Notes: generated from the letters alone by a model not told the origin. Positions 8,437 to 54,482 are shown, counted from the stretch's first letter. The stretch: 64,000 nucleotides of DNA from Dehalococcoidia bacterium (GCA_964291495.2 OZ219871.1:736001-800000); one strand, 5' to 3'. A program made the numbers and translations.

Positions 8437-8482
8437 CTATGGCGCCGCAGCAATGACCGCCCAGCTGGAAGGAACCCAAATC

Positions 8483-9802
8483 GTGCGGAACATCATGGGA
8501 TTGCGGACGCTCGCGACCGCGCTGCTGCTCGCGCTCGCGCTCGCCGCGGCGGCGTGCGCGAGCGACGACGGCGATGACGGTGATGCCGGTGATGCCAGCC
8601 AGGCTGCGGCACAGCCTCCGCAAGTTGAGGAGCGTCTCCAGGTTGTCGCGTCCACCGGCATCATCGCCCACTTTGCCGAACAGATCGCCGGAGACGACGC
8701 CGACGTCGTGTCCGTGATCCCGCCGGGCGCGGACGCGCACAGCTTCACCCCCACCACCACCGCCATCCGCAACATCGCCGCCGCCGACCTCGTGATCGTC
8801 AACGGCTATAACCTCGAAGAGAGCACCCTGGCCACCATCTTCGAGAACCTGCCTGAGGATGCCACGCTCGTTGTCGCCACCGCCGGCATCGCCCCCCTCG
8901 AGGGCGGCCACCACCACCACGAGGACGAACACGGCCACGACGAGGACGAGGACGAACACGGCCACGACGAGGACGAGGACGAACACGGCCACGACGAGGA
9001 CGAGGACGGCCACGACCACGACGAGGACGAAGAAGGCCACGACGACGAAGAGGGCCACGACCACGACGAGGACGAGGACGGCCACGACGACGACGAAGAG
9101 GGCCACGACCACGACGAGGACGAAGAAGGCCACGACGACGACGAAGAGGGCCACGACCACGACGAGGACGAAGAAGGCCACGACGACGAAGAGGGCCACG
9201 ACCACGACGAGGACGAGGACGAGCACGGCCACGACGACGAGAAGATGAAGGTCGCCGCGGAGCACGAGCTCGCAGTCGCCGATGGCGACCCGCACATGTG
9301 GCTGACCGTCCCGAACGCGATGGTCTACGTGCGCAACATCGCCAACGCGATCGTCGCCGCCGACCCGGACAACGGCGCCGCCTACCGCGAGCGCGAGGCG
9401 GCCTACCTCGCCGAGCTACAGCAACTCGACGAGGAGGTGCGGGCCACAATCGCCGGCATTCCGGAGGAAAGCCGCGTGCTGATCGTCTACCACGACGCCT
9501 TCCAGTACTTCGCCGCCGAGTACGGGCTCGAGCTGGCCGCGTCCCTGCTGCCGGGTAACCCCTCGCAGCAGGCGAGCGCCGCCGCCGTCGCCGAGATCAT
9601 CGAGATCGTGGCCGGCCGCCAGGTCGGCGCCGTCTACCGCGAGCCGCAGTTCGCCGCGACCGCACTCGAGGCGATCGCTGAGGAGGCGGGCGTGCGCGCG
9701 CTGACGATCTACTCCGCCGCCTTCACGGACGAGGTCGACAGCTACGTCAAGCTGATGCGGGCGAACGCGGACGCGCTGGTCGAAGGGCTTGGCGGCGGGT
9801 AG
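8483..9802 (+). CDS. znuA: Zinc ABC transporter substrate-binding lipoprotein with very long His/acidic loop
   Basis: Lipobox AAAC; PPGADAHSF, NGYNLE, DPHMWL, YHDAFQYF motifs of the ZnuA/TroA family. Confidence 0.92.
   Translation: MRNIMGLRTLATALLLALALAAAACASDDGDDGDAGDASQAAAQPPQVEERLQVVASTGIIAHFAEQIAGDDADVVSVIPPGADAHSFTPTTTAIRNIAAADLVIVNGYNLEESTLATIFENLPEDATLVVATAGIAPLEGGHHHHEDEHGHDEDEDEHGHDEDEDEHGHDEDEDGHDHDEDEEGHDDEEGHDHDEDEDGHDDDEEGHDHDEDEEGHDDDEEGHDHDEDEEGHDDEEGHDHDEDEDEHGHDDEKMKVAAEHELAVADGDPHMWLTVPNAMVYVRNIANAIVAADPDNGAAYREREAAYLAELQQLDEEVRATIAGIPEESRVLIVYHDAFQYFAAEYGLELAASLLPGNPSQQASAAAVAEIIEIVAGRQVGAVYREPQFAATALEAIAEEAGVRALTIYSAAFTDEVDSYVKLMRANADALVEGLGGG
8909..9243 (+). repeat. Coding tandem repeat (HGHDEDEDE / GHDHDEDEE units)
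   Basis: Repeats of CACGACGAGGACGAGGACGAACACGGC and variants, all in frame. Confidence 0.95.
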
Positions 9803-9832
9803 CGCTCGCAGGGCAGAGGGCGGAGCGGGCCG

Positions 9833-10654
9833 GTGACGTCTCATCGCGAGCCCACGCACACGTGTGGCCCGCTCGCGCTCGAGGTCAGCGGCCTCTGGGC
9901 CGGTTACCCCGGCAAGCCGCCTGCGATCGAGGACGTCAGCTTCGACGTCCCGCAGGGGGAGATGGTCGGCCTCGTCGGGCCGAACGGGGCCGGCAAGTCC
10001 ACGCTCTTCAAGTCGATCCTCGGCGTCATGCGTCCGCTGCTCGGCGAGGTGCGTGTCTTCGGGCGCCCCGTCTCGGAGACGCGGTCGGACGTCGCCTACA
10101 CCCCGCAGGTCGAGGAGGTCGACTGGGAGTTCCCGGTCAGCGTTCGCGACGTGGTGCTGATGGGCCGCTGGCGTGGGACCAGCCCGTTCCGTCGCTGGTC
10201 GCGCGAGGACCGCGAGGCCGCCGAGGACGCACTCGAGCGCGTCGGCCTCGCCGAGCTCTCCGGGCGGCAGGTCGGCGAGCTATCGGGCGGGCAGCGCCGC
10301 CGCGTGCTGATCGCCCGCTCGATCGCGCGAGGCGCGCGGCTGCTGCTGCTCGACGAGCCATTCGCCGGCCTCGACGCCGCCGTCGAGCACGACCTGCTCG
10401 TGATCCTCGGCGAGCTCACCCACGAGGGCTGCAGCATCCTGATCGCCACGCACGACATCTCCTGCGTTGCGAACGCCTGCCACGGGGCGTGCTGCCTGAA
10501 CCGCCGCGTGCAGGGCTACGGGCCGCCCGCCGACGTGCTCACCGAGGACGTGCTCTCGCGCACCTTCGAGCGCGCGCTCGTCCCGGTCGGCGCGGATCGC
10601 GAGTTCGTGGTCGCCGCGGGCACGGCGCCGCCCGGGCGGTCTGAGGGCGGATGA
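9833..10654 (+). CDS. znuC: Zn/Mn ABC transporter ATP-binding protein
   Basis: GPNGAGKST, LSGGQRRR, LLLDEPF, THD motifs; operon context. Confidence 0.92.
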   Translation: MTSHREPTHTCGPLALEVSGLWAGYPGKPPAIEDVSFDVPQGEMVGLVGPNGAGKSTLFKSILGVMRPLLGEVRVFGRPVSETRSDVAYTPQVEEVDWEFPVSVRDVVLMGRWRGTSPFRRWSREDREAAEDALERVGLAELSGRQVGELSGGQRRRVLIARSIARGARLLLLDEPFAGLDAAVEHDLLVILGELTHEGCSILIATHDISCVANACHGACCLNRRVQGYGPPADVLTEDVLSRTFERALVPVGADREFVVAAGTAPPGRSEGG

Positions 10655-11508
10655 TCGTGGAACTCGCGGAGTGGCTGATCGCGCCCTACGAGTACACGTT
10701 CATGCGACGCGCGCTCGGCTCGCTGCTGATCGTCAGCCTGGTCGGCTCGGTCGTCGGCACCTTCGTCGTGCACAAGGGGTTGGCGGCGTCGGGCAACGGG
10801 CTCGCGCACGCGACGCTGGGCGGAGTTGCGATCGCCTTCGTCAACGGCGCCAGCGTAGCGCTGGGCGCCCTCGCCGCGGCCGTCGCGACGGCGCTCGGCA
10901 TCGGCTACGCGCGGCGCACCTCGCGCGTCAGCTACGACACGGCGATCGCGATCTTCTTCGTCTCCGCTTTCTCGCTCGGCATCCTCGTGATCTCGCGCCG
11001 CTCGACCTACACGCCGGACCTCCTCTCCTTCGTGTTCGGCGACATCCTCGGCGTCTCGCGGGCGGACCTGGTCGGCGAGCTCGCGCTTGCCGTCGTCGTG
11101 ATCGGCTTCGTGCTCGCCTTCTACCGGGAGATGGTGATGGTCGCCTACGACCCCGGAATGGCGGCTGCGGCCGGGGTGCGGACTGGGTTCTTCGAATTCT
11201 CGCTGCTGGTCCTGATCGCGCTCGCAGTGGTGGTGGCGCTGCAGGCGATCGGCATCGTGCTGGTCACGGCGACGCTGATCATCCCGCCGGCGACGGCGAG
11301 CCTGCTGTTCCGGCGGATCCCGCTGATCATGGCGACAGGGTTCCTGATCGGCGCGGCCACCTCCGTGGCCGGCCTGTACGCCTCGTTCCACGCGGGCGTC
11401 GCCGCCAGTCCCGCCATCGTGCTCTCCGCGACGGCCACCTTCACCGTCGCGCTGCTGGCCACCTCGCTGCGCCGCACGCGCCTCCCGGCTCCCGCAACCG
11501 CCGAGTAG
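10651..11508 (+). CDS. znuB: Zn/Mn ABC transporter permease
   Basis: ABC-3 motifs 'YTFMRRAL', 'LAHATLGG', 'FGDILG'; ATGA overlap with znuC. Confidence 0.92.
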   Translation: MIVELAEWLIAPYEYTFMRRALGSLLIVSLVGSVVGTFVVHKGLAASGNGLAHATLGGVAIAFVNGASVALGALAAAVATALGIGYARRTSRVSYDTAIAIFFVSAFSLGILVISRRSTYTPDLLSFVFGDILGVSRADLVGELALAVVVIGFVLAFYREMVMVAYDPGMAAAAGVRTGFFEFSLLVLIALAVVVALQAIGIVLVTATLIIPPATASLLFRRIPLIMATGFLIGAATSVAGLYASFHAGVAASPAIVLSATATFTVALLATSLRRTRLPAPATAE

Positions 11509-11639: not shown

Positions 11640-12386
11640 TCACGCCGTTCCGCCGGTCCTCTCAGTCCCCCGGGATGAGCCCTGCATCGCGGCGAAGTGT
11701 CGCTCTACCCGGCCTGTCAGCAGCATCGCGGCAATCACGACAAGCCACAGCACGAAGGCGATACCGCTGATCCTGTGGACGATCGTTGCGGCATCCACCC
11801 AGATGAACTGCATCCCGATTCCGAGCGCCAGCGAACCCGGTGCAATGCGACGGAGGGCACCGCCGGCCTTCCACTGTCGCTGCGCCGCCGCCAGCAGCGC
11901 CAGTCCCGCGGCCGCGAACCCTGCCGCGCCGGTGATCCAGCGGACGCTCGCGATCGCCTCGGTCGAGCCTTCCACGACGCTGAGGGCTGCGGCCTCCGAC
12001 GCCGCTGGCGCGGACGCGGCGAGCGCGAGGGCGCACACGCCGGATACGGCGGTGAAGGCGCCCGAGACGGCGAGCAGCAGGGGAACGAGCGGAGTGCCGA
12101 GTCGTTCTCGAACGATCCAGGTACACCAGAGGAACCAGGCCCCGGCGATCAGCGCGAGGGCGGAGACAAGACGCGCGGCGCCGCTCACGCTGTACATGGC
12201 CTTGTCGGCGGCAATCGCGCGGATCGATTCCAGCAGGTCCGGTTGGTCGGCATCCGCGGAGACACGCGCAAACACCATCACCACGGTGGCAGCCGCCGTG
12301 AGCAGCAAGAGCAGGCCCGCCTTTCGCGCAGCGGGATCCCGAGGCCGACCGAGGGCGGTCGTCACTGCTTGACCTGACCTGTCCAC
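11640..12386 (-). CDS. Multi-pass membrane protein (DUF4386-like), hypothetical
   Basis: About 6 TM helices; its 3' half is duplicated at 46058-46383. Confidence 0.7.
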   Translation of the reverse strand: MDRSGQAVTTALGRPRDPAARKAGLLLLLTAAATVVMVFARVSADADQPDLLESIRAIAADKAMYSVSGAARLVSALALIAGAWFLWCTWIVRERLGTPLVPLLLAVSGAFTAVSGVCALALAASAPAASEAAALSVVEGSTEAIASVRWITGAAGFAAAGLALLAAAQRQWKAGGALRRIAPGSLALGIGMQFIWVDAATIVHRISGIAFVLWLVVIAAMLLTGRVERHFAAMQGSSRGTERTGGTA

Positions 12387-12400
12387 GCGCCGGACTCCGC

Positions 12401-13432
12401 CTACGGCAGCACGCCGGCCGAACGCAGCAGGCGCAGCGTGCCCTCGAGGTCCGCGAGGTCGCTCAGGTCGATCGGCGGCGGCTGCAGGTCGGCGATGGGC
12501 GTGAGGTGGGGGGCGCTCGGCACGCCCGCGATCAGCGGGTACTCGGAGTTCGTCTCCGCGTAGTAGCGCTGCGCCTCCTCGCCGAGCATGAACTCGAGGA
12601 ACTTCCGCGCCTCGTCGCTGCGGTCCGAGGTCTTGAGGACGCCGGCGCCCGCCACGTTGACGAGCGTGCCGATGTCCCCCGGGCCGGTGTGGTAGTTGCG
12701 CGCGGGGAAGCCCTCGCCCTCCTCGGCAAGGAAGCGGTGCAGGTAGTAGTGGTTGACGAGGCCGACGTCGACCTCGCCGCGGCCGACGGCGGCGACGATC
12801 GACACGTTGTTCGGGAACTCGGCCGCGTCGTTCGCCTTCATGCCCTCAAGCCAGGCGCGCGCGGCCTCCTCGCCCTCGCCGACGCGCAGCGCGGTGACCC
12901 ACGCCTGGAACGAGCCGTTGGCGGGCGCCCAGGCGACGCGGTCGCGCCACTTCGGGTCGGTCAGCTCGAGGATCGAGGTCGGCAGCTCGGAGGGCTCGAG
13001 GACGTCCGTGTTGTAGATCAGCACGCGCGCGCGGCCGGAGAGCCCGACCCACTGTCCCTCGCGCGAGCGGTAGGCCGACGGCACGAGGTCAAGGATGTCG
13101 TCGTCGAGGTCGGCGAACAGTCCGGCCGCCTGCACAGCGCCGAGCGCGCCCGCGTCCTGTGCGATGTAGAGGTCGGCCGGGCTCTGCTCGCCCTCCTCGA
13201 TGAGGAGCGCGGCGAGCTGGGCGGTGCCGCCGTAGCGCACCTTGACGTTGATGCCGGTCTCCTCGGCAAAGCGCTGGAGGAGGGGCCCGACCAGGTCCGG
13301 GCTGCGGCCCGAGTAGATCGTGAGCTCCCGCTCGTCATCGTCGCCGCAGCCGACGGCAAGCAGCGCGCCGGCCGCGGCGACCGCCAGCACCCCGATCGAC
13401 AGCAGCCGCAAGACACTTCCTCGTGACGTCAT
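12401..13432 (-). CDS. Fe(III) ABC transporter substrate-binding lipoprotein (FutA/FbpA family)
   Basis: TIYSGR, EGEQSPAD, VGLSGRARV, GLVNHYY (tandem Tyr iron ligands), EYPL; lipobox AVGC. Confidence 0.9.
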   Translation of the reverse strand: MTSRGSVLRLLSIGVLAVAAAGALLAVGCGDDDERELTIYSGRSPDLVGPLLQRFAEETGINVKVRYGGTAQLAALLIEEGEQSPADLYIAQDAGALGAVQAAGLFADLDDDILDLVPSAYRSREGQWVGLSGRARVLIYNTDVLEPSELPTSILELTDPKWRDRVAWAPANGSFQAWVTALRVGEGEEAARAWLEGMKANDAAEFPNNVSIVAAVGRGEVDVGLVNHYYLHRFLAEEGEGFPARNYHTGPGDIGTLVNVAGAGVLKTSDRSDEARKFLEFMLGEEAQRYYAETNSEYPLIAGVPSAPHLTPIADLQPPPIDLSDLADLEGTLRLLRSAGVLP

Positions 13433-13493
13433 CGCTACCCCGCAGAATTCGTCCCAGCCTACCAGCGTCAGACGTTGACACTATGACCATATA

Positions 13494-13512
13494 TTAGGTT
13501 AGACTGCATTTC
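13494..13512. promoter_or_regulatory. DtxR/IdeR-like iron box in divergent promoter
   Basis: TTAGGTTAGACTGCATTTC matches consensus TTAGGTTAGGCTAACCTAA at 12/19 with a perfect left 9-mer; AT-rich patch with TTGACA at 13475. Confidence 0.5.
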
Positions 13513-13586
13513 GGCATCAGTCCAGAGCCTTACGAGGTCATAGCGCGAATCGTACCACGGATCCCCTCCAAGCGAACAAGGGAGCA

Positions 13587-16500
13587 ATGCCTGGACTCAT
13601 GACGAACGTGGCAGGCAGCACAGGACAACTCCGGGGGCCCGCCCTGCTTGGCCGGCGCTCGCGCTGGCTCGTGGCGGCGCTGCTTACCGTCGTCGCCGCT
13701 GTCGTGGTCCTCCGCGCCGCCGATGGCGCGCTGCTGCGGGAGGGCATCGCCGAGCTGGCGAGGCGCCCCGCATTGCTCGCGCTCCTCTTCGGCGGCTACG
13801 CCGCAGCGTTCGTGCTGCGGGCGTTCGCCTGGCGCGTGCTGCTCGGGCGCGCCCGCGGAGGCGCAAGCAGCGGACGGCTGATCGCGATCCTCCACGCCGC
13901 CCTGCTCGCCAACCACGCGCTGCCCGTCAAGGCGGGCGAGCTGCTGCGACCGGCCCTCGCAGCCCGCGCCGGCATCCCGATCGCCGACGCGACCGTCTCG
14001 ACGGTCGTCGCCCGGGTGCTCGACATCGCCGCGCTGCTCGCGATCGCCGCCGCCCTGCTGCCGCTGACCGCGGGTGGGGATGGCGCGACGGTACTCGCCA
14101 TTCCGGCGCTGCTGCTCGCCGCCGTTGCCGTCGGGCTGCTCTGGTTCCGCGGCACGAGCCTCGCCGGAACCGGCTTCGAGATGTTCGACCGGCTCTGGAC
14201 GCACGCGCGTGACTCGCTCCGCGCGCTCCCGCTTCGCGCCGTCCTGGTCGCGTTCGCCATCACCGTGCCGGGCTGGCTGCTGGAGTCCGTCGTCCTCTAC
14301 GCGGCGGCGCAGGCGCTCGGCCTCGAACTCTCATTGCCAGCGGCAGCCGCGGTGACGGCGTTCACGATCCTCTTCCAGATCGTGCATCTCACGCCCGGCG
14401 GGATCGGCGTCTACGAGGCGAGCATGACCGCCGCCCTGCAGGCGCAGGGCATGCCGGGCGGCGAGGCGCTGACGCTCGCTGTGCTCACGCACGGGCTCAA
14501 GTTCGCCTACGCCTTCGGCCTCGGGGCGCCGCTCACGCTGCTCGCCGTCGGCGGGGTGCCGTCGCTCAGCCGCCTGCGCGGCAGCCGCGAGGACTCGAAG
14601 CGCGCCGGCCGCTTCGAGATCGTGGCGGCCCGGCTCTGGAACGTGCTCAACGAGGGCAAGCCGTTCACCCCCGTGTTCGTCGCCGGCGTGCTGCTGCTGC
14701 TCGGCCTCCCGCACTTCGCCGACGGCGGCTACTGGCTCAGGCAGCTGGTCGCACTCGTCGCGCTGCTGCCGCTGTTCGCCCTGTTCTATCGCTACGCCTT
14801 CCCGCTGCACCTGCGCGGCGGGTTGTGGGTGCTGCTCGCGGCCTGCCTCGCGCTGTTCCGCTTCATCGACGTGCAGGCGATCGCTCTCGTGTTCGCGTTG
14901 TACCTGGGCTTCACCGTCGTGCTCTGGGGCAGCGTCTACTACCACCTGCGCATCGGCACGCCGTGGACGAACGGGCTGCGTTTCTGGCGGCTCGTGCTCG
15001 AGAACCCGGACCCGACGAGCGGGAACTTCCTCGAGCAGGTTCCCAAGGTGCTCATCCTCGTGCTGCTCTCCGGCTTCCTCGTGGACCACCCGGGCCCGCT
15101 CTCGATCGCGGCCGTCGAGGCGTTCACGCTCGGCGCCGCCGTCCTCACCGTACTCACCCACCAGTGGTGGTTCACCTGGGCGCCGCCCGACCCACTGGCG
15201 CCGACGCGGCTGCGTAACGAGGGTGGCCCCGCGCTCTGCCGCCGCGTGATCCTGATCGTGATCGACGGCTGCCGCGCCGACCGGCTCGCCGAGGCGCGCA
15301 CGCCGTTCCTCGACCGTCTCGCCGCCGAGGGCCTCGCCTGCGAGGACATGCGCACGGTCTACCCGGCGCGCACGGTCACCGCGTTCACCTCGATGCTGAC
15401 GGGTGCGACGCCGCGCGTGCACGGCATGCGCAGCAACTTCGTGCCCTCGCTCGGCGCGAAGTGCGAGTCGATCTTCGACGTGCTGGAGCAGCGCGGCATG
15501 CGCGGCCGCCTCGCCGGCATCGCCCACCTCGTCGACTCGTTCGGCGAGGAGGCCGTCGAGACGGTCACCGCCGTCACGCCGAACGAGGAGATCGACGACG
15601 CGCTCGTCGCCCGCGCGCGCGAGGTCATGCGGCGCGACGACCCCGAGCTGCTGGTCCTGCAGACGCTGTCGGTCGACCAGACGGGCCACGCGCGCGGCAG
15701 CTACTACCCCGAGTACCTCGAGCGCATCGAGGCGACAGACCGGCTGCTCGAGGAGTTCGTGGGCTGGTGCCGCGCGGAGGGCTACCTCGACGGCGCGACG
15801 CTGATCGTGACCTCCGACCACGGACAGGGTCGCGGCATCGGCGGGCACGGCCACCTCACCGAGCCGGAGCGCCGCGTGCCCTTCATCGCCTGGGGCGAGG
15901 GCGTCCCGCGCGGCGTGCGCATCGAGGACGACCGGAGCCTGCTCGATGTCGCGCCGACGCTTGCGTACTACCTCGGGGTCCCGCCGCCGGCACGGTCGGT
16001 CGGCCAGGTGCTGTTCACGCCGGACGGCGTGCCGCCGCGCGACGACGGCCCGCTCGCGATCGTCATCCCGGCCTACAACGAGGCCGAGGTGCTGCCGGAG
16101 GTGCTCGCCCGCATCCCGCGCGCGCAGCTCGGCGAGACCGTTGCGATCGTGGTCGACGACGGCTCCGAGGACGGCACCGCCCTCGTCGCGGAACGCACGG
16201 GCGCGGACCTCGTGGTGCGGCACGAGCGCAATCGCGGCCTCGGTGCGGCGCTGCGCACGGGCCTCGAGACCGCGCGCGGGCTCAACGCGCGTGCCGCCGT
16301 CTACCTGGACGCCGACCTCGAGTATGACCCGGCGGAGATCCCGGCGCTGCTCGCGCCGATCGAGGCCGGCGAGGCGGACTACGTCCTCGGCTCGCGCTTC
16401 CTCGGACGCCGCGAGGGGCACGCGCTGTGGCGCTCCTCGGGCAACCGGGTCTTCACGCTGGCGCTGAGCTTCGCCGCCGGCCGGCGCATCTCCGACGGGC

Positions 16501-16724
16501 AGACGGGGTTCCGCGCCTTCTCGGCGCGGGCGCTCAACGTGGCGGAGATCGTCCACGACTACAACTACGCGCAGGTCCTCACGCTGGACCTGCTGCACAA
16601 GGGGATGCGCCTCGCCGAGGCGCCGATCTCCTACCGCAGCCGCACCCGCGGCCGCTCATTCATCAACGGGCACTACCTCTGGCGCGTGCCACTCGGCATG
16701 GCGCGGGAGTTGTTGGGCAGTTAG
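13587..16724 (+). CDS. Triple fusion: LPG-synthase-TM/UPF0104 flippase-like + membrane-bound alkaline phosphatase/phosphodiesterase family + GT2 (DPM1-like) glycosyltransferase
   Basis: N: ANHALPVKAGELLRP, TPGGIGVYE. Middle: ILIVIDGCRAD, YPART, SVDQTGH, TSDHG, GGHG. C: VIPAYNE, VDDGSEDGT, YLDADLEY, DGQTGFRAF. One uninterrupted 1045-aa ORF. Confidence 0.85.
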   Translation: MPGLMTNVAGSTGQLRGPALLGRRSRWLVAALLTVVAAVVVLRAADGALLREGIAELARRPALLALLFGGYAAAFVLRAFAWRVLLGRARGGASSGRLIAILHAALLANHALPVKAGELLRPALAARAGIPIADATVSTVVARVLDIAALLAIAAALLPLTAGGDGATVLAIPALLLAAVAVGLLWFRGTSLAGTGFEMFDRLWTHARDSLRALPLRAVLVAFAITVPGWLLESVVLYAAAQALGLELSLPAAAAVTAFTILFQIVHLTPGGIGVYEASMTAALQAQGMPGGEALTLAVLTHGLKFAYAFGLGAPLTLLAVGGVPSLSRLRGSREDSKRAGRFEIVAARLWNVLNEGKPFTPVFVAGVLLLLGLPHFADGGYWLRQLVALVALLPLFALFYRYAFPLHLRGGLWVLLAACLALFRFIDVQAIALVFALYLGFTVVLWGSVYYHLRIGTPWTNGLRFWRLVLENPDPTSGNFLEQVPKVLILVLLSGFLVDHPGPLSIAAVEAFTLGAAVLTVLTHQWWFTWAPPDPLAPTRLRNEGGPALCRRVILIVIDGCRADRLAEARTPFLDRLAAEGLACEDMRTVYPARTVTAFTSMLTGATPRVHGMRSNFVPSLGAKCESIFDVLEQRGMRGRLAGIAHLVDSFGEEAVETVTAVTPNEEIDDALVARAREVMRRDDPELLVLQTLSVDQTGHARGSYYPEYLERIEATDRLLEEFVGWCRAEGYLDGATLIVTSDHGQGRGIGGHGHLTEPERRVPFIAWGEGVPRGVRIEDDRSLLDVAPTLAYYLGVPPPARSVGQVLFTPDGVPPRDDGPLAIVIPAYNEAEVLPEVLARIPRAQLGETVAIVVDDGSEDGTALVAERTGADLVVRHERNRGLGAALRTGLETARGLNARAAVYLDADLEYDPAEIPALLAPIEAGEADYVLGSRFLGRREGHALWRSSGNRVFTLALSFAAGRRISDGQTGFRAFSARALNVAEIVHDYNYAQVLTLDLLHKGMRLAEAPISYRSRTRGRSFINGHYLWRVPLGMARELLGS

Positions 16725-16761
16725 CCAGAGCGCCACCCGGCGCGGAGGGAGGAATCGAGTC

Positions 16762-18042
16762 ATGAGAGTGGCATTGGCAGGCCTGCGCACGGTCGCGGCG
16801 TTCGTGGTCCTCGCAGCACTGGCGGCGCTTGTCGCCGCCTGCGACGGCGACGATGGCGAGGACCGGCCGGGCACGGTGGAGGTCGTCGACGGGGGATCGG
16901 CGTCGGTATCGGCCTCCGTCTCCGGTGTCAGCGGGTCCGTCTCCGGCACGGGGACTGGCACGGGCACGGCGACCGGCTCCGTTTCCGGCACGGGGACCGG
17001 CACGGGCACGGCGACCGGCTCGGCGACCGGAACCGGCACGGGCACGGCGACCAGGGCTGACGAGCGGGGCCTCTTCATCCCGGTGGGTCAGCCTGCCGAG
17101 ACGGAAGGCCCTACCAGGTCGGACGGCTACTACTACCCCACGACGAACCGGGAGATCTACCAGAAGATCGCCTCGGACTACCAGGAGATCGCCTCACTCA
17201 CCAACGTGATCAAGGATGGCGAACCCTTGCCCGCGGCGGAGATCTGGCTGCTCTATGAAGCTGGTCCGCACACCCGCATCGGCAACCAGAGCCGGACACT
17301 CCGCAGCTTCGCAGCTGGCACCACGCCGGGCCGCTATTTCCCGGATGCCGCGGAGTTCTACGGGTCCGGCACGTTCCTCGACAGCCCGATCCAGAACGCA
17401 GTGCGCCAGCGCGGCGACGCGGCGGACTACACCGACGCGCAACGGCGTCAGGCCATCAACAAGGGCATCCTCCGGGTCCTCTACCACTGGTCCAAGTTCT
17501 ACATGATCATCGGCGGCGACTTCATGCGATCCGGCCTCGTGGACGAGGCATGGGCCGTCTACGTCGGCGAGGAAGTCGACGGCGAGTACCCGAACTCGCT
17601 GGCTGCCCTGGCCCGGTCGCGGGAGGGCAACTTCGGCAGGGAAGGGACGCTGGACGTTCCCCTCCGCGAGGCGATGGAGCAAGCCCGGCAGGCGGCCGAC
17701 GCGGGGGACGAAGCGGCCTACGCAAGCGCGGCGCGGGACGTGTACTCGCGATTCAACGCCATCTTCTACCTGGCAACCGTGCGGTACATCGGCATCGCGC
17801 AGGAAGACGTACAGAACGGCGACGACCCGGGCACGCACCAGGTTGAAGCGCTGGCGTTCTACCAGTCGATCCAGCCCGAGGTCGCCAGGGCCGACCCGGC
17901 TGCCGACGAGACGATCATCGCCTACCTCACGGCTGAGCCGGACCAGGTCACGGCTGCGTCGCGGGACGCGGCTCTGGCCGCGCTCAACAGGACGGCGGAG
18001 GCCCTCCTGCTGAAGCAGAGCGACCTGGTGGCGAGCTACTAG
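16762..18042 (+). CDS. Lipoprotein with Gly/Ser/Thr repeat linker and FEA1-like (low-iron-inducible) domain
   Basis: Lipobox VAAC. 'VDEAWAVYVG...LARSREGNFG', 'FYLATVRY' and 'EALAFYQSIQP' resemble FEA1-family motifs as recalled; not searched. Confidence 0.6.
   Translation: MRVALAGLRTVAAFVVLAALAALVAACDGDDGEDRPGTVEVVDGGSASVSASVSGVSGSVSGTGTGTGTATGSVSGTGTGTGTATGSATGTGTGTATRADERGLFIPVGQPAETEGPTRSDGYYYPTTNREIYQKIASDYQEIASLTNVIKDGEPLPAAEIWLLYEAGPHTRIGNQSRTLRSFAAGTTPGRYFPDAAEFYGSGTFLDSPIQNAVRQRGDAADYTDAQRRQAINKGILRVLYHWSKFYMIIGGDFMRSGLVDEAWAVYVGEEVDGEYPNSLAALARSREGNFGREGTLDVPLREAMEQARQAADAGDEAAYASAARDVYSRFNAIFYLATVRYIGIAQEDVQNGDDPGTHQVEALAFYQSIQPEVARADPAADETIIAYLTAEPDQVTAASRDAALAALNRTAEALLLKQSDLVASY
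16897..17052 (+). repeat. Coding low-complexity repeat (SVSGTGTGTGTATG x2-3)
   Basis: 42-bp unit TCCGTYTCCGGCACGGGGACYGGCACGGGCACGGCGACCGGC repeated in tandem. Confidence 0.9.
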
Positions 18043-18126
18043 CGACCAGCCCCGAGGCGACGCCGGCGGCGGGGCGGCCCCTGCCCCGACTCCGCCGCCG
18101 GCGCCCCGGGCTCGGAGGATCCGACC

Positions 18127-18945
18127 ATGAAGATCACCATCGCGGGCTACGGCTCGATCGGCCACTACGTCGCCGACCTGTTCCGCGACCTCGAGCCTGC
18201 CCTCTACGACCCGCCGCTCGGCCTCGGCACGGTCGAGGATCTGCGCGACACGGACTTCGTGATCGTCTGCGTACCGACGCCGCCCCTGCCCTCCGGCGCG
18301 TGCGACACCTCCATCGTCGAGGAAGTCGTGAGGCTCGCCGATCCGCGCGTGGCGATCGTCTGTCACAGCACGGTCGCCGTCGGCACGACGGAGCGGCTGA
18401 TCGCGGGGACGGGGAAGCCGATCGTCTTCGTCCCCGAGTACGCGGGCGAGGCGGACGATCATCCGCTGCGCAACCCCGCGAACCGCCGCTTCCTGATCTA
18501 CGGCGGCCACGAGCCCGCGACGTCCGCCGTACAGGCGCTCTACGAGCAGGCGTACGGACCCGGCCTGCGGCACTTCCGCGTGGCCCCGACGCTCGCCGAG
18601 GTCGTGAAGTACATGGAGAACGCCTTCCTCGCCGCGAAGGTCGCGTTCTGCAACGAGTTCTTCGACCTCTGCAACGCGGCGGGCGTGGACTACGAGTGGG
18701 CCCGCCTGCTCTGGCTGCAGGACGATCGCATCAACCCCAGCCACACCGTCGTCACCGAGGAACGCGGCTACGGCGGGCAGTGCCTGCCCAAGGACGTGGC
18801 CGCGGTCTGCGACGCCGGACGCGAGCTGGGCGCGCCGATGGCGATCCTCGAGGCGGTCCAGGCGGCGAACGTGCGGCATCGAATCAGCGGCGCGAGCGCG
18901 GCGGCGGCCGCGCTGCCCGCCGCTGCGGGGGTACAGGGAAGATGA
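18127..18945 (+). CDS. UDP-glucose/GDP-mannose dehydrogenase family protein, short form without the C-terminal domain
   Basis: GYGSIG, CVPTP, STVAVGTT, PEY, KYMENAFLAAKVAFCNE, GYGGQCLPKD (catalytic Cys); only 272 aa. Confidence 0.85.
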   Translation: MKITIAGYGSIGHYVADLFRDLEPALYDPPLGLGTVEDLRDTDFVIVCVPTPPLPSGACDTSIVEEVVRLADPRVAIVCHSTVAVGTTERLIAGTGKPIVFVPEYAGEADDHPLRNPANRRFLIYGGHEPATSAVQALYEQAYGPGLRHFRVAPTLAEVVKYMENAFLAAKVAFCNEFFDLCNAAGVDYEWARLLWLQDDRINPSHTVVTEERGYGGQCLPKDVAAVCDAGRELGAPMAILEAVQAANVRHRISGASAAAAALPAAAGVQGR

Positions 18946-19436
18946 ACGGCCGACGCATGAAGATCGGCGGCATGAGCCGCTGCGACTGCGGGCGCCACAC
19001 CTGGCTGGTGCTCCACGAACGCGAAGGCGAGACGCACGTCTGGCTGCGCGTTCACGCGGACCTCGCCAGCTGGTTCACGCCGGACCACGGCGGCATCACG
19101 CGCCTCGTCCGGGCCCTCGGCGACGTGCTGCAGGGCATCGGCCAGGAGCCGCGCGCCGTGATCGTCAGCTACGACGCGAAGCGCCGCATCCGGCTGCGCC
19201 TGCGCCTCGCCGGGAGCGTCGGCGAGACCGACGTCGAGTGCGAGCCGGGGGTCGCGCTGCTCGCCGCCGAGCGGATCGGGCTGCCGATCCTGCTGCAGTC
19301 GGCAGCACCCGACGGCGATTCGCCGGCGCGTCCCGCCGAGCCGGCGAAGACCGCGATCCCCGAGGTCTACCGCGAGGCGCTGGCTGAGCTGGGGCTGCTG
19401 GAAGGGGCGCCGGACTGCCTGGACCGGCTCGACTGA
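18942..19436 (+). CDS. Degenerate DUF151/bifunctional-nuclease-like protein
   Basis: ATGA-coupled to the upstream gene; 'WLVLHERE', and 'VECEPGVALLAAERIGLPI' parallels DUF151 'IDARPSDAIALA.R...PI'. Confidence 0.45.
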   Translation: MNGRRMKIGGMSRCDCGRHTWLVLHEREGETHVWLRVHADLASWFTPDHGGITRLVRALGDVLQGIGQEPRAVIVSYDAKRRIRLRLRLAGSVGETDVECEPGVALLAAERIGLPILLQSAAPDGDSPARPAEPAKTAIPEVYREALAELGLLEGAPDCLDRLD

Positions 19437-20872
19437 TTCGACGGCGCGGGCGGCCCCCGGCGTCCCGCGCGGGGACGCCAGGTGAGAGCCGCCCACGCCG
19501 CCAGGGCGAGGCCTCCGAGGCCAAGCCAGGCGACGGTGAGCAGCCACGTTTCGGTCGTCCACGAGGTGTACTGCGGGAACAGTCCGGCCACGCCCCGGAA
19601 GAACACGGCCTGTAGCTCGAACGGGTCGACCGCGATCACGACCTCGCGCGAGCGGCCGGCCTCGGCGAGCGCCGCCGTCACGGCGAGCGAGTAGACGCCG
19701 AGCGCCACGAGCGCGGCGCGCCAGGCACGACCGCCCCTCGAGGCGACGAGGACGAGCGGGATCGGCAGCAGCGGGAAGACCGTCACGAGCGTGCGGCCGG
19801 GGAACCACCAGCCCATCATCGTGATTACGACGAAGGTCGCGATCAGCACCTGCACGGCGACGAGGCCCAGCACGAGGCGCTGCCTCTCGTCGCCGCGCGC
19901 CAGCAGCAGCAACCCCGGCACGACGGCGAGCAGCAGCGGCGCCCAGCGCGCGACGCCGAAACGCCGGTCGATCAGCAGCCCCCACAGCCGGTAGACCCGA
20001 TCGCCGAACTCGACGTGCTCCCCGACGATCGTGGCCGTGGAGCCGCCCGCGTAGACGAGGTTCACGTTGTACGGCGTGAGCGACTCATAGGTCACGAGGT
20101 GGAACGCGCCGTAGACGAGCCCGGAGACGGCCCCGCCTCCGAGGAGCACGAGCCGCCCTCGGGGTTCGGCGCGCCAGAGGACGTAGAGCGCGACCAGCGC
20201 GGCGAGCGGCGCGTACTTCGCGCCCAGCCACGGCAGCGCGGAGAGCAGCAGCACCAGCACCAGCACCCGACCGGCCGGGAGGCGCTCGCGCCCCGTCGCG
20301 ACGAGCAGCGCCCCCACGAGCGCGAGGGCGGCAGGTACCTCGGGATAGACCTCGGAGGAGTAGATAAACGCCGTCGCGCTGAGGGCAACGGCGGCTGTCG
20401 CCAGCCAGACCGGCAGCGGCCGCGCCTCGGTCAGCCGCAGCGCGAGCAGGTAGGCGAGCGCCCAGGTCAGCGCCGCGATCAGCACGAGTTGGAGCTGTGC
20501 CCCCGCCAGCCCAGTGAGGGCGAACCCCGGCAGGAGCAGCACGGAAAGCCCGACGTTGTGCGGGCTCAGCACCCGTCCGTCCTCGAGCGGGACGGACTGC
20601 GTCCACAGCCCGTCGCGATGGTCGAAGAACGACTCGTACGAGCGCGTCGCGTACTGCTCGCGGAGATCGAGGTTCCCGTCCTCCAGCAGGCTCTGCGTCG
20701 TGATCAGGTAGAACGGTTCATCGCCGGTGATCGAGGCGCCTCGGCTGGCGCGGATGTCGATCGACGTGCTGTAGACGACGGCCAGCAGTGCAAAGAGCGC
20801 GATCGCCCCGGCCATGCCCGGCCGGGCGCGGGCGAGTTGCGCCAGTGAGCCTGTCGCGTCCGTCAGTCGCAC
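19367..20872 (-). CDS. GT-C fold (PMT-like) multi-pass glycosyltransferase
   Basis: 'ITGDEPFYL' DE motif after TM1, 'YSSEVYPE', 'LPWLGAKY', 'GWWFPGRTL'; about 12 TMs. GTG 20872 follows GGAGAG. Confidence 0.7.
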   Translation of the reverse strand: MRLTDATGSLAQLARARPGMAGAIALFALLAVVYSTSIDIRASRGASITGDEPFYLITTQSLLEDGNLDLREQYATRSYESFFDHRDGLWTQSVPLEDGRVLSPHNVGLSVLLLPGFALTGLAGAQLQLVLIAALTWALAYLLALRLTEARPLPVWLATAAVALSATAFIYSSEVYPEVPAALALVGALLVATGRERLPAGRVLVLVLLLSALPWLGAKYAPLAALVALYVLWRAEPRGRLVLLGGGAVSGLVYGAFHLVTYESLTPYNVNLVYAGGSTATIVGEHVEFGDRVYRLWGLLIDRRFGVARWAPLLLAVVPGLLLLARGDERQRLVLGLVAVQVLIATFVVITMMGWWFPGRTLVTVFPLLPIPLVLVASRGGRAWRAALVALGVYSLAVTAALAEAGRSREVVIAVDPFELQAVFFRGVAGLFPQYTSWTTETWLLTVAWLGLGGLALAAWAALTWRPRAGRRGPPAPSNQSSRSRQSGAPSSSPSSASASR

Positions 20873-38301: not shown

Positions 38302-39099
38302 TCAACTCCCGCCGGTGCCGATCGGCAGGCAGATCATCCGACCGGACTCGGGGTTGGTGAAGATCCTCGCTGCCACCCCGAACACGGCCCGCATCAGCTC
38401 GACGGTAAGCACCTCCGAGGGCGCGCCGTCCGCCACGATCCGGCCGCCGTCCACGACGACGACCCGGTCCGCGTAGTTCGCCGCGTGCACGAGGTCGTGG
38501 AGCACCATGACGACGGTCATGCCGCGGCTCGCGCAGAGGGACGCAACGAGGTCGAGCACCTCGAACTGGTGCCGGACATCGAGGAACGTCGTGGGCTCGT
38601 CCAGGAGCAGGGTGCTGGCGCCCTGCGCGAGCGCGAGCGCGACCCACGCGCGCTGGCGTTCGCCCCCCGAGAGCTCGTCGATGGGACGCTCCGCGAAGTC
38701 GCTCAACCCCGTGAGCGTGAGCGCTGATTCCACCGCGAGTGCGCCCTCGGCGCCGAGTCGTCCGAACAGCCCGGTATGGGGGAAGCGGCCCAACTCGACC
38801 AACTCGCGAACCGTCAGCCCCGGTGGGCTCGATGGCGATTGGGGAAGGACGGATAGCAGGCGGGCGATATCGCGAGATCCGAAGCTCCGGATGTCCTCTC
38901 CAGCGAGGAGTACGACGCCGCTCCGCGCCGGAAGCAGCCGGGCCATCGCCCGGATCACCGTGGACTTCCCCGACCCGTTCGGTCCGACGATGGCGGTGAG
39001 GGTGCCCTGTTGCAGTCCCAGGTCGAGGCCGTCGAGCACCATCCGCTGCCCGTAGCCGGCGCTGACCTCTGCCAGTCTGAGGGGGTCGACTTCGTTCAT
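38302..39099 (-). CDS. Metallophore/iron-complex ABC ATPase (FecE/FhuC-like)
   Basis: GPNGSGKST, LSGGERQRAW, LLDEPTTFLD, VLHDL. Confidence 0.92.
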   Translation of the reverse strand: MNEVDPLRLAEVSAGYGQRMVLDGLDLGLQQGTLTAIVGPNGSGKSTVIRAMARLLPARSGVVLLAGEDIRSFGSRDIARLLSVLPQSPSSPPGLTVRELVELGRFPHTGLFGRLGAEGALAVESALTLTGLSDFAERPIDELSGGERQRAWVALALAQGASTLLLDEPTTFLDVRHQFEVLDLVASLCASRGMTVVMVLHDLVHAANYADRVVVVDGGRIVADGAPSEVLTVELMRAVFGVAARIFTNPESGRMICLPIGTGGS

Positions 39100-40121
39100 C
39101 TGATGCTCCTCCGAAGAAGGACGATGAGTAGCGGCGCCCCGAACAGGGCCAACACGGCTCCGACGGGGAGGCCTACGCGATACGACGAGGAGGGGATTGG
39201 CGGCCTGATGGAAAGCGATTGGGCAACGAGGTCGGCCGCCAGCAGGAGCACGCAGCCGATGAGGGCGGACAGGGGCAAGACGCGGCGGGCGTCGGCGCCG
39301 GCGATAGCCCTCGCGGCGTTCGGGGCCATGAGGCCCACGAACGGGATGGCTCCCGAGACACTCACAGCCCCGGCAGCCAGTACGGCGGCCAGCCCGAAGA
39401 GCGCGACTCGAGCGGGCTGCAACGGGAGGCCGAGCGCGCGGCCGGACTCGTCGTCAAGCTGGAGCACGTTCGCTGCCCGTGCAGCCAGCAGCCCCGCCGG
39501 GATGCCGACGGCAGCCCACGGCAATGCAAGCCAGACGTCATCCCAGACGCGGCCGTTCAGCGAGCCGATGAGCCAGGCGAGGATGCTGCCAAGCGCCTGC
39601 TGAGAGCGCAGCATGACGATCGAAGTCAACGATCCAAGAATCGCGTTGACGATGACTGCCGTGAGGATCAGTCGCAGTGGATCAATGCGTCCGCGCACCG
39701 AACTCGTGAAGAGCACCAGAATCCCGCCCCCCAGGGCGCCCGCGAGCACGATGAACGGAAGCAGCCGCCCGGGTGGCGGCAGTCCCCACATGCCCGCGAG
39801 GAAGAGGACCGCAGCGAGGATTCCCCCCGCCGAGACCCCGGTGAGTCCGGGCTCGGCGAGACGGTTGCGCATGACGACCTGCAGCAATGCCCCCGAAAGA
39901 CCCAGCATGCAGCCCACCAGGAGCCCGAGAATCGCTCGAGGCAGCCGCAGCTCACGGACGATGGTCAGATCCGTGGGGTTCGTCGATCGATCCATCAGGG
40001 CGAGAACGACACGATCCGGTGGGATCCAGACCGTGCCCAGTCCCAGGTGGAGGATGAAGAGCACGGCAGCCGCGATGCTCGCGAGCAGCGTCAGAAACAC
40101 AAACGAACGCGCGGATGTCAC
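39096..40121 (-). CDS. FecCD-family permease
   Basis: LRLPR, RNRLAEPG, IPFVGLMAP, PVGAV. Confidence 0.92.
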   Translation of the reverse strand: MTSARSFVFLTLLASIAAAVLFILHLGLGTVWIPPDRVVLALMDRSTNPTDLTIVRELRLPRAILGLLVGCMLGLSGALLQVVMRNRLAEPGLTGVSAGGILAAVLFLAGMWGLPPPGRLLPFIVLAGALGGGILVLFTSSVRGRIDPLRLILTAVIVNAILGSLTSIVMLRSQQALGSILAWLIGSLNGRVWDDVWLALPWAAVGIPAGLLAARAANVLQLDDESGRALGLPLQPARVALFGLAAVLAAGAVSVSGAIPFVGLMAPNAARAIAGADARRVLPLSALIGCVLLLAADLVAQSLSIRPPIPSSSYRVGLPVGAVLALFGAPLLIVLLRRSIR

Positions 40122-40122
40122 G

Positions 40123-41148
40123 TTAGCGGTTCAGCCCGAGGTTTGTACGGCGAAGGAGCAGGAGGATCATCGGGGCGGCCAGGAGGGTCGTGCACAGCCC
40201 CACAGGGACCTCTCGCGGATAGAGCACGACCTTGGAGAGCACGTCGGCCGCCAGTAGCAGGAGCGCTCCGATCGCCGTGGTGACCGGAAAGAGAATCCTC
40301 GCGTCCGGCCGTGCGACGATCAGGCGAGCGATGTGCGGCGTGAGCAGCCCAACCCAGGCGATGGGCCCGGCGACGGCCACAATGCTCCCGACGAGCAACG
40401 CGGCCAGTGCGATGAAGACGAGGCGCATGCGCTTCGCCTGCATCCCCAGCGACGAGGCGACATCCTCGTGCAGTTGCAGCACATTGGCGCCTCGAGCGAG
40501 GAGGAACGCTGCGGGAATCCCCACAATCACCCACGGCCACACGAGCCCGACATGGTCCCATGTCCTGTTCGAGAGGTTGCCGACCGTGAAGAGGAAGTAG
40601 ACCTGCACCGCACCCGATGAGGCCGCGAGACTGATCACCGCGAGGATGATCCCCTGGAGGAGCGCCGCAACCGCGACGCCGATCAGCGCGGCTTCCACCG
40701 GTGTTCGCGCCCCCCGCGATGCCGCGAGGACGATCAGGCCGCCGCCGAGGCCCCCGGCAAGCGCCACGACGGGATGAAGTGCGAACAGGATCGGTGCGTT
40801 CAGCAGCAGGATCACCGCCATCGCCAGCGATGCGCCCGCCGACACGCCGAGCAGCTCCGGCGAGGCAAGCGGATTCCTGAGCACGAACTGCAGGATGGCC
40901 CCGGCGAGCCCGAGCGCCGCGCCGGAGAACAGCGCCAGGATCAGTCGCGGCACTCGCAGCTCACGGACCACGAGCCGATCGATCCGGTCGCCGGACTCGC
41001 CCGTCAGGATCCCGGGAAGATGCCCGGGCGCCACCATCGGCTCACCCGTGCTCAGGTGGGCCACGGCGAGGCCGGCGAGCGCCGCGACGATCGCTCCGGC
41101 GACGAGTACCCGGGGCCAGCCCGGAGCCGCGACCCGGGCTGCACTCAA
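40123..41148 (-). CDS. FecCD-family permease
   Basis: LRVPR, RNPLASPELLGVSAGA, VGLLTPH, EVPVG. Confidence 0.92.
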   Translation of the reverse strand: MSAARVAAPGWPRVLVAGAIVAALAGLAVAHLSTGEPMVAPGHLPGILTGESGDRIDRLVVRELRVPRLILALFSGAALGLAGAILQFVLRNPLASPELLGVSAGASLAMAVILLLNAPILFALHPVVALAGGLGGGLIVLAASRGARTPVEAALIGVAVAALLQGIILAVISLAASSGAVQVYFLFTVGNLSNRTWDHVGLVWPWVIVGIPAAFLLARGANVLQLHEDVASSLGMQAKRMRLVFIALAALLVGSIVAVAGPIAWVGLLTPHIARLIVARPDARILFPVTTAIGALLLLAADVLSKVVLYPREVPVGLCTTLLAAPMILLLLRRTNLGLNR

Positions 41149-42284: not shown

Positions 42285-42296
42285 GTTCTTTCCATG

Positions 42297-42343
42297 CGAT
42301 ACCTAGTCTCAGTGGCACCGTATCATATTGAGACCCTGTATCG
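42297..42343. promoter_or_regulatory. Two (plus one partial) Zur/Fur-family boxes in divergent promoter
   Basis: CGATACCTAGTCTCA (42297-42311; reverse complement TGAGACTAGGTATCG) and TGAGACCCTGTATCG (42329-42343). Confidence 0.6.
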
Positions 42344-42468
42344 TATCCGCTCGCGCCGAGCTTTCCGGCGAGCCTCCAGAAGGGCGCGGTAACGCGGATG
42401 GCGCCTGTCACGGGCCTGGGCCTGTGCCGCCACGGGCGGCGGAGGCGCGGAGACCACATGCACCACCC

Positions 42469-44201: not shown

Positions 44202-44205
<4 letters not shown>
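42469..44205 (+). CDS. Exporter-fold ABC half-transporter (IrtA/YbtP/CydD-like)
   Basis: TMD plus GGSGAGKTT, LSGGERQR, LDEATS. Confidence 0.88.
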
Positions 44206-46013
<1,808 letters not shown>

Positions 46014-46028
46014 GCACTTCGGGCTGTG

Positions 46029-46383
46029 CTAGCGATAGCCCGCCCGGGGTGGGTCCGGCATCGCGGCGAAGTGTCGCTCTACCCGACCTGTCAGCAGCAT
46101 CGCGGCAATCACGACAAGCCACAGCACGAAGGCGATACCGCTGATCCGGTGCACGATCGTTGCGGCATCGACCCAGATGAACTGCATCGCGATGCCGAGC
46201 GCCAGCGAACCCGGCGCAATGCGCCGGATCGCGCCGCCGGCCTTCCACTGTCGCTGCGCCGCCGCCAGCAGCGCCAGTCCCGCGGCCGCGAACCCTGCCG
46301 CGCCGGTGATCCAGCGGACGTTCGCGACCGCCTCGGTCGAGGCATCCACGACGCTGAGGGCGGCGGCCTCCGACGCAGCCGGC
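46029..46383 (-). pseudogene. 5'-truncated paralog of the membrane protein at 11640-12386
   Basis: Near-identical to ~11683-12008 (VRWITGAAGFAAAG...ERHFAAM); homology stops abruptly at ~46383. Confidence 0.85.
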
Positions 46384-52452: not shown

Positions 52453-52468
52453 CGCATGGGCTCCGATC

Positions 52469-53428: not shown

Positions 53429-53557
53429 CTACACACCTCCGGGCGCGCGCGACGCTCTGCCTGACTCCTCCGGCTGCGCCGGAGTCCCCCTCCCCCTCAC
53501 CCTCTCCCGCCGGGGGAGAGGGGACCGGAGGGAGGAGACCCGAGGCGAGAGGGGCCG

Positions 53558-54466: not shown

Positions 54467-54482
54467 CGCATGGGCTCCGATC

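Follow-up and report, generated by a model that had tools for sequence, protein, structure and literature searches.

Why do genes for lipid-linked glycosylation share a locus with a gene for iron capture? This question is raised by positions 12401 to 20872 of a 64,000-nucleotide stretch of Dehalococcoidia bacterium DNA (GCA_964291495.2, OZ219871.1:736001-800000; hereafter the window), where a preliminary description had proposed an iron-linked envelope modification locus built around an FEA1-like lipoprotein. All six genes of that description and its operator-like site were found again in our open reading frame (ORF) calls, and the gene arrangement is conserved in relatives, so it is not a product of chance. 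The core of the locus is a lipid-linked glycosylation cassette consisting of a GT2 glycosyltransferase (G), a putative flippase (L), a GT-C glycosyltransferase, a nucleoside diphosphate (NDP)-uronate enzyme and a membrane-anchored protein with a catalytic domain of the alkaline-phosphatase superfamily (P). The cassette is widespread and undescribed as far as the literature can be searched; no description was found there, with most subscription papers and supplements (which may hold expression tables by locus tag) outside the scope of the search. Our analysis suggests an undescribed surface coating which is produced under iron scarcity in three distant bacterial groups. In the reading that we prefer, with a probability of roughly 0.5, an iron-limited cell builds a phospho-substituted uronate on a polyprenyl carrier, flips it and transfers it to an envelope acceptor, where it would trap Fe(III) for weak iron-binding proteins.

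Distribution of the cassette and its link to iron transport

We mapped 173 loci, namely the window, 11 relatives, one plasmid, 80 genome loci and 80 metagenome loci. Locus counts refer, unless another total is given, to the 103 loci of at least 12 kb, with the 70 shorter ones left out and near-duplicates kept; since the loci are best matches and their kin, these counts show consistency and are not independent trials. Locus groups were defined by the type of GT-C, whereby the Bacillota-type group comprises one named plasmid, cluster names and metagenome contigs sorted by GT-C type, and 'archaeal-like' was read from gene content and tree position. G is present in 101 of the 103 loci, GT-C in 99, an NDP-sugar enzyme in 91, L in 88 and FEA1 in 74. 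A gene for an iron transporter (FbpA/B, FTR1, EfeO/B or imelysin, with FEA1 excluded) is present in 95, that is, in 65/69 Chloroflexota-type, 14/14 Rubrobacteria-type and 16/18 Bacillota-type loci. The partner transporters vary (FbpABC, FTR1, EfeUOB, imelysin) and are unrelated. Together with the operator-type boxes described below, this supports the proposed iron link across phyla. Eight loci have no transporter gene. Three of them (L013, L048 and L070) end at a contig edge near the fusion and L073 starts at the fusion; two others are archaeal-like, and L148 and L152 represent one Bacillota-type arrangement. GT-C, P and G are all present in L148, with no iron transporter gene in its 12 kb.

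L, P and G form one fused protein in the window but are encoded by separate genes in Bacillota-type and Rubrobacteria-type loci, and the split P forms of Rubrobacteria are about 480 amino acids (aa) long. In genome G100, whose P is identical to P0050 (for which one source gives the name Rubrobacter xylanophilus DSM 9941), fbpBA and FTR1 diverge from a Fur-type box and the genes SDR-GT-C-L-P-G. The usual Bacillota-type order is FEA1-SDR-L-P-G-anchored partner-FTR1-GT-C, apparently a single operon, in which the anchored partner is itself FEA1-related (hhalign 94%). Dehalococcoidia loci often add imelysins, DHOR, HTTM, DtxR and ferritins. As a separate observation, the cassette of 16 loci (L025-L084, e.g. 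L028:3112-4476) has an HTTM/VKGC (gamma-carboxylase-like) gene, two imelysins and DHOR as neighbours. The three bacterial groups and the archaeal-like group separate in a FastTree tree, from which we read no direction of transfer. In the archaeal-like loci L114-L116, P is fused to VTT/DedA and followed by a DUF6541-like membrane protein and GT2, next to mutS/mutL; no iron genes were found in these three loci.

Clustering at 50% of the sequences found with the P anchor as query leaves 110 representatives, and at least 570 of the best 600 candidates from GTDB species genomes were confirmed as matches with both anchor and catalytic domain. In samples drawn around genome G041, P occurs in 8 of 201 genomes from its phylum and in 31 of 61 from its class (2 of the 31 flagged as unpublished), and no relative was found in viral contigs. 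Such a distribution could mean that an ordinary glycosylation cassette hitch-hikes in an iron island and that the link is historical. The spread is patchy, with the fusion in 12 of 41 relatives, P in none of 300 genomes sampled evenly from the phylum and a single Bacillus plasmid operon with P among 72,556 plasmids, and the archaeal-like copies are without the link. However, the link outlasts gene splitting, reordering and swaps of GT-C, transporter and operator type, and the cassette has its own box when it lies apart from the transporters. We therefore regard hitch-hiking as very improbable.

Structure and predicted sidedness of P

The preliminary description had counted three parts in the fusion, a flippase-like membrane part, a phosphodiesterase/phosphotransferase and a DPM1-like GT2. 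All three are found in our analysis, and the count has to be raised to four by a six-helix membrane domain which anchors P. This anchor has no Pfam match and no PDB sequence match. It carries the polar motifs WNxxNE, YYHxRxG and DxTSGNxxEQ, with columns that are invariant in 51 sequences; WNxxNE and DxTSGN are each kept in 159 of 160 sequences, and the motifs probably sit on the cytoplasmic face.

The structure model of P has a pLDDT of 89. Fold comparison, which covered model residues 213-475 and hence the catalytic domain only, gives Z scores of 28.2 with PafA and ENPP7 and 27.7 with NPP (root-mean-square deviation (rmsd) 2.2-2.3 Å over about 255 aa), above the Z of 22 with LtaS/LtaP. Thr596 is the candidate nucleophile and D560, D697, H701, D744, H745 and H754 are the candidate Zn ligands, roles which we assign on the assumption that NPP numbering and chemistry apply; the corresponding motifs are present in 148-159 of 160 sequences. 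The modelled P belongs to the NPP/PafA branch by its fold, its Thr nucleophile and its ligands for two metals, and the latter two features point to phosphoryl chemistry. The maximal 19-aa hydropathy after residue 545 of the fusion is 1.14 and there is no membrane span after residue 523, so that the catalytic domain and G should share one side of the membrane. As a GT2 enzyme needs a nucleotide-sugar substrate, this side is most probably the cytoplasm, which would set P apart from outside transferases of the LtaS/EptA/GacH type.

Some Bacillota-type paralogs of P (P0181, in a cluster named from Risungbinella, P0201 and P0152) have degraded metal ligands and are possible pseudo-enzymes. In P0143, P-G is joined to a protein like the FEA1-related anchored partner of Bacillota in a single 1100-aa record, which may be a genuine fusion or a read-through artefact.

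Glycosylation partners

G matches PF00535 above the cut-off. It is closest to AglJ, PpgS and DPM synthase; the AglJ, PpgS and DolP-hexose transferase models match below their cut-offs, and 5mlz is matched with E 2e-15. These matches indicate that G is probably a GT-A (GT2) enzyme of the polyprenyl-phosphate-sugar synthase type. L is PF03706/TIGR00374-like rather than GtrA or Wzx, and is a putative flippase by this homology. A second PF03706-like gene in the window's genome, G000, adjoins a PMT_2 GT-C and an oxidoreductase-like gene (G000:C6:105181-109825), which is possibly a housekeeping glycosylation locus.

The GT-C of the window has no Pfam family, no PDB sequence match was found for its family, and its sequence evidence is weak (1 of 22 members matches PMT; an Atlas row has PMT in 12% of members). 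Its model (pLDDT 82) matches ALG12 with a Z of 23.7 (rmsd 3.8 Å, 327 aa), followed by ArnT (20.3), AglB (20.1) and Pmt (19.1). The score falls to 7.5 after rank 20, the top 20 matches are GT-C-type or GPI-pathway membrane proteins, and Foldseek agrees. This fold bears out the three-part lipid-linked route that had been suggested for the locus. Full-length GT-C is found in the same 12 of 41 relatives as the fusion, with one further fragment. Bacillota-type and Rubrobacteria-type loci carry other GT-C families (PMT_2 matches), and hhalign of the window family against the Bacillota family reaches only 64%. Three barely related GT-C families thus occupy one slot according to lineage, a pattern that would follow from a common donor and an acceptor that differs with the envelope.

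The annotation of an NDP-sugar dehydrogenase is sound as regards the G7/G9/G12 Rossmann motif and the catalytic residues K161, C219 and D223, which are conserved (the three residues in at least 90% of 15 short homologs), and its closest PDB matches are UDP-glucose dehydrogenases. It is the sole such match in G000. It is, however, a short form of 272 aa in which the C-terminal UDP-binding domain PF03720 is not matched. Most linked SDRs carry the motif R[YF]FTVYGPxxRP[DE]M, and a Bacillota SDR matches 6zl6 (E 4e-49), which we take to be a UDP-glucuronate (UDP-GlcA) 4-epimerase. With dehydrogenases and uronate-4-epimerase-type SDRs, uronate is the likeliest sugar, as had been proposed.

Operator-like sites

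The iron-box-like site of the preliminary description needs to be redefined. It has 7 mismatches to the 19-bp IdeR box, no better than shuffles, and fits a TTAG-N6-CTAA palindrome with 2 mismatches. The 19-bp box, used as a consensus like the Fur-type boxes below, was not enriched before homologs and was dropped for this 14-bp core. Of 67 fusions, 13 are preceded by a perfect copy of the core (0.22 expected) and 31 by one with no more than a single mismatch (6.4 expected). When the genome is scored with a matrix derived from the 13 perfect sites of other genomes, the palindrome of the window takes second place. A DtxR homolog is present at G000:C1:1681-2235.

Among the Bacillota-type operons, all 13 whose upstream DNA is long enough have a Fur-type box of 3 mismatches or fewer in front of them (0.83 expected); several of these operons are closely related. 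Such a box also stands before 7 of 19 Rubrobacteria-type operons (0.03 expected), nine more of which have a box with 4 mismatches. Where a Rubrobacteria-type cassette is interrupted by EfeUOB, P has a separate box. One-mismatch Fur boxes are found in L148, directly upstream, and in L174; none was found at the Chloroflexota-type loci L133, L134 and L085. Judged by sequence, these upstream sites occur above chance, as would be expected of members of a Fur/DtxR regulon.

The FEA1-like lipoprotein and the question of the acceptor

The lipoprotein of the window matches NF038033 ('FEA1-related lipoprotein') with E 1e-34 and 120 bits, short of the cut-off of 250, and its positional counterpart in G014 reaches 464 bits. 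The window protein itself has no Pfam match, and no solved relative of the family was found by PDB sequence search. However, 8 of 17 aligned family homologs match PF07692 (E up to 0.1, best 4e-30) and Atlas rows (0.90) agree, which relates the family to the Fea1 domain family. Neither this kinship, checked at the sequence level, nor the iron-gene linkage of the homologs speaks against the preliminary description. What does not hold is the central position given to FEA1. It is present in 10 of 41 relatives, every time in the cassette locus and always among the 12 with the fusion, and in 0 of the 29 relatives without the cassette, whereas the cassette occurs without FEA1 in G006, in L148 and in all 14 Rubrobacteria-type loci. 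FEA1 is thus a dependent passenger of the cassette, and FEA1 as the core was rejected on the locus counts (74/103, and 0/14 in Rubrobacteria-type loci).

Members of the algal FEA1/ISIP2a family (PF07692) bind iron or are induced by low iron (PMC7676907). The homologous domain is common to these proteins, to NF038033 and to the proteins studied here, which differ in being bacterial lipoproteins with two divergent allele classes (about 30-35% identical) and a single or doubled domain, doubled in many loci, and in being bound to the cassette in the relatives searched. The alleles at L015:5831-7120 and L017:11434-12642 are 31-38% identical to that of the window, with flanking genes 82-89% identical, which suggests allele exchange or differential retention.

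An EDRP motif with a Gly/Ser/Thr tract is common to the FEA1-like and cupredoxin-like lipoproteins of these loci. It has two six-frame matches in G000, and only that of the window follows a lipobox. This tag raises the possibility that the iron-binding lipoproteins are themselves the acceptors, through a Pgf-like O-glycosylation which would recognise the tag and stabilise, retain or arm them, with chemistry and iron control as in the reading that we prefer. That unrelated lipoproteins share the tag, that it marks one lipoprotein in G000 and that FEA1 is missing wherever relatives lack the cassette would all fit, as would the T/E/G-rich tethers of Rubrobacteria-type FbpA and EfeO and the fold matches to Pmt and AglB (Z 19-20). 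The Pgf system (a GT2, two membrane proteins and PgfE) modifies surface proteins (PMC5856776), and one Bacillota G matches the PgfS model at E 1e-20, below the cut-off. However, G006, L148 and the Rubrobacteria-type loci retain the enzymes without FEA1, no Bacillota-type or Rubrobacteria-type protein was seen to carry the tag, the FbpA of the window is without the tract, and the best GT-C matches act on lipid acceptors. Tethers rich in Ser/Thr (S/T) are moreover common in G000 (18 of 60 candidate lipoproteins have at least 12 S/T in 30 aa), where a second GT-C adjoins the second PF03706-like gene. For the same count, S/T richness as an acceptor mark was rejected as unspecific. A protein acceptor is possible, although we doubt it, and an envelope lipid or polymer is slightly favoured.

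FbpA and the dispensability of the cassette

The solute-binding protein (SBP) of the window has 7w3w as best PDB match (E 5e-90) and, by this homology and its Tyr-Tyr ligands, is an FbpA. It carries Asn where a third Tyr would stand (NHYY type), as do 70 of the 77 linked SBPs, and a likely permease gene is located at G000:C5:429648-430901. In VmFbpA, this two-Tyr type requires an anion and has a weak affinity of about 17 uM (PMC10804667). Among six cassette-free relatives, three retain a 5' stub of the fusion and one retains GT2 and GT-C fragments, which indicates that the cassette was deleted as a block with differing break points. The cassette is therefore accessory: relatives that have lost the whole block still possess FbpA.

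Dispensability is also compatible with a protective role, in which an iron-controlled remodelling of the envelope (through a surface charge that acts against peptides, phage or other metals, or through membrane stability) is co-regulated with uptake but does not feed it. Ugd, Arn and EptA form a lipid A modification set, of which such remodelling would be the mirror image. The cassette has the same parts as the Arn/Ept and Gac routes (an ArnC-like G, an ArnT fold), FbpA works without it, and L148 combines a Fur box with the lack of a transporter. In Gram-positives such modifications serve peptide, phage and stress roles (PMC8035078 and PMC9574508). It is less easily reconciled with a protective role that the cassette is interleaved with transporter genes in all three groups, including the apparent Bacillota-type operon of FEA1, anchored partner and FTR1, and that FEA1 is lost together with the cassette. 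We consider this alternative rather unlikely.

Proposed mechanism

In the iron-trapping reading that we prefer, a DtxR-family regulator (Dehalococcoidia) or Fur (Bacillota-type and Rubrobacteria-type) would repress the cassette when metal is plentiful, and such iron repression is likely from the sites found. The dehydrogenase and/or the 4-epimerase may supply UDP-GlcA or UDP-galacturonate (UDP-GalA), as judged at the family level, and G would load the uronate onto polyprenyl phosphate at the inner face; a uronate donor is moderately likely from the sequences. At the same face P, which is often fused to G, would put a phosphoryl or phosphodiester group via Thr596 on the lipid-linked sugar, a transferase role that is plausible by analogy, with service to the carrier, i.e. 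its recycling, as the alternative. L would flip the lipid-linked sugar and the protein with the GT-C fold would pass it to an acceptor in the envelope, for which a membrane lipid or a wall glycopolymer is the likeliest candidate. The product, rich in carboxylate and phosphate, may then trap Fe(III) at the membrane and feed the binder of the host (FEA1-like, FbpA, EfeO or imelysin), which is the weakest step. A more specific version, which we offer only tentatively and consider unlikely in this detail, is that the cassette makes a membrane-tethered phospho-uronate glycolipid which serves as a cell-bound siderophore or a source of synergistic anion, handing Fe(III) to FEA1-like proteins, FbpA or EfeO/imelysin.

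Several observations weigh against this mechanism. The loci are not independent samples. In archaeal-like loci P occurs with GT-C and/or GT2, but an iron transporter is found in 0 of 2 (at least 12 kb) and no Fur box was found at L113 and L115. L is lacking in 15 of the 103 loci and an NDP-sugar enzyme in 12, a sizeable minority of Dehalococcoidia SDRs are without the RPDM motif, and the protein-acceptor GT-Cs AglB and Pmt come within about 4 Z of ALG12. The TTAG-N6-CTAA motif was picked post hoc, from the output of the IdeR-box search. A genome-wide matrix scan recovered no iron regulon in G000, its other top sites not lying before recognisable iron genes, and the second iron locus of the window has no palindrome with fewer than 3 mismatches. 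The palindrome is retained at fbpA in 6 of 6 examined relatives without an intact cassette; as it stays with fbpA after the loss in this genus, the box of the window alone shows no control of the cassette. DtxR-family proteins can, in addition, sense Mn. Finally, FbpA is present in 24 of 24 family relatives and the fusion in just 10 of them, so uptake does not need the cassette, and the anion-dependent, weak FbpA type, which fits iron trapping, is equally present in cassette-free relatives.

Comparison with known systems

The cassette works like multi-component transmembrane glycosylation but matches no compared system in flippase type, in where the phospho-enzyme sits and how it is anchored, or in iron control. 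It has a GT-A lipid-phosphate-sugar synthase, a flippase and a GT-C in common with CsbB/GtcA/YfhO, GtlA/GtcA/GtlB and GacI/J/K/L, as these are presented in the accessible part of PMC8035078. It differs from them in the use of PF03706 instead of GtrA/Wzx, in the fused, cytoplasm-facing enzyme of the alkaline-phosphatase superfamily and in its iron boxes and transporter linkage, which are absent from the systems described in that part of the source.

Two precedents concern P. GacH, with GacIJKL, puts glycerol-phosphate on the group A carbohydrate (PMC9574508), so that there too a membrane enzyme of the alkaline-phosphatase superfamily beside lipid-linked glycosylation adds negative charge. However, GacH is LtaS-like and acts outside, whereas P, with a six-helix anchor of its own, is predicted to lie inside and resembles PafA/NPP more closely. 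In Halobacterium the alkaline-phosphatase-like Agl30/Agl31 add sulfate to uronic acids of the AglB-pathway N-glycan (PMC11980604), which is a precedent for a transferase of this type acting on glycan uronic acids. P has instead a Thr nucleophile and NPP-type ligands, a distinction drawn from the descriptions.

Rhizobial Rgt (RgtE, a bactoprenyl-P-GalA synthase, and the GalA transferases RgtD/F) also combines a polyprenyl-phosphate-uronate donor with membrane transferases. Its acceptor is lipid A, and neither a P enzyme nor an iron link is described in the accessible part of PMC7663294. Pgf of Streptococcus mutans likewise has a GT2 with partner genes that modify surface proteins; no P domain is described for it in the accessible part of PMC5856776, and the match to the PgfS model is far below the cut-off.

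Other features of the window

Positions of all features of the locus are collected in Table 1.

Table 1. Features of the cassette locus, in positions of the window
Feature	Position	Strand	Basis or remark
FbpA-type Fe(III)-binding lipoprotein (SBP), two-Tyr type	12401..13432	-	PDB 7w3w
DtxR-family-type operator-like palindrome, divergent promoter	13490..13511	.	TTAG-N6-CTAA core, 2 mismatches
Four-part fusion L-P(TM, transmembrane)-P(catalytic)-G, 1045 aa	13587..16724	+	PF03706, PF01663/sulfatase, PF00535
L: LPG_synthase_TM (PF03706), putative flippase, aa 28-309	13668..14513	+	PF03706 E 1e-36, TIGR00374 weak
P anchor: six predicted membrane helices, about aa 340-530	14586..15200	+	family marker
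P catalytic domain, alkaline-phosphatase superfamily, PF01663/sulfatase aa 554-797	15243..16013	+	fold comparison
G: GT2, polyprenyl-phosphate sugar synthase-like, PF00535 aa 825-983	16053..16724	+	PF00535
FEA1-related lipoprotein, divergent allele	16762..18042	+	NF038033 below cut-off
EDRP motif and Pro-free Gly/Ser/Thr tract after lipobox Cys	16858..17052	+	shared-tag comparison
Short NDP-sugar 6-dehydrogenase, 272 aa, no C-terminal domain	18127..18945	+	PF00984, TIGR03026 below cut-off
DUF151/BFN-like small accessory protein, 164 aa	18942..19436	+	hhalign, transitive
GT-C fold glycosyltransferase, GDEPFY first-loop motif, 482 aa	19427..20872	-	structure model
Accessory membrane protein, weakly DUF998-like, downstream of fbpA	11640..12386	-	in 25/93 loci

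The 164-aa ORF had been called DUF151-like. It has no Pfam match of its own, but the assignment holds transitively, as hhalign links it (96%) to a family whose 13 of 13 members match PF02577; close homologs are found in 7 loci and a sister family in 16. A ZnuA/C/B-type metal ABC operon at 8453-11508, whose SBP has a long His/Asp/Glu repeat, lies outside the conserved cassette (ZnuA in 5/93 loci) and has a second close copy at G000:C5:1504547-1506885. A second iron-type locus is present at 38302-46013, where an FecCD/Peripla_BP_2 ABC importer is divergent from two ABC exporter-type genes, and is followed at about 46029-46349 by a partial second copy of the accessory membrane protein gene. Two ABC permease genes form a near-exact tandem duplication (51552-53502 and 53566-55516, about 1.95 kb, 12 mismatches), which is either a recent duplication or an assembly artefact.

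Implications

In three or more distant bacterial groups, some hosts of which are cultured, the cassette connects lipid-linked glycosylation with iron homeostasis. P is an uncharacterised enzyme family with a marker domain and a ready catalytic mutant, and the bacterial FEA1-like proteins, kin of algal low-iron proteins, gain a genetic context that allows tests of their role. If the more specific glycolipid version is true, iron would be captured in a way that differs from secreted siderophores, from reductases and from binding proteins on their own; P would then represent a new class of lipid-glycan phosphotransferase that faces the cytoplasm. Even if the product is merely protective, an anionic envelope modification under the control of an iron sensor would, by the searchable literature, be new in Fur/DtxR biology.

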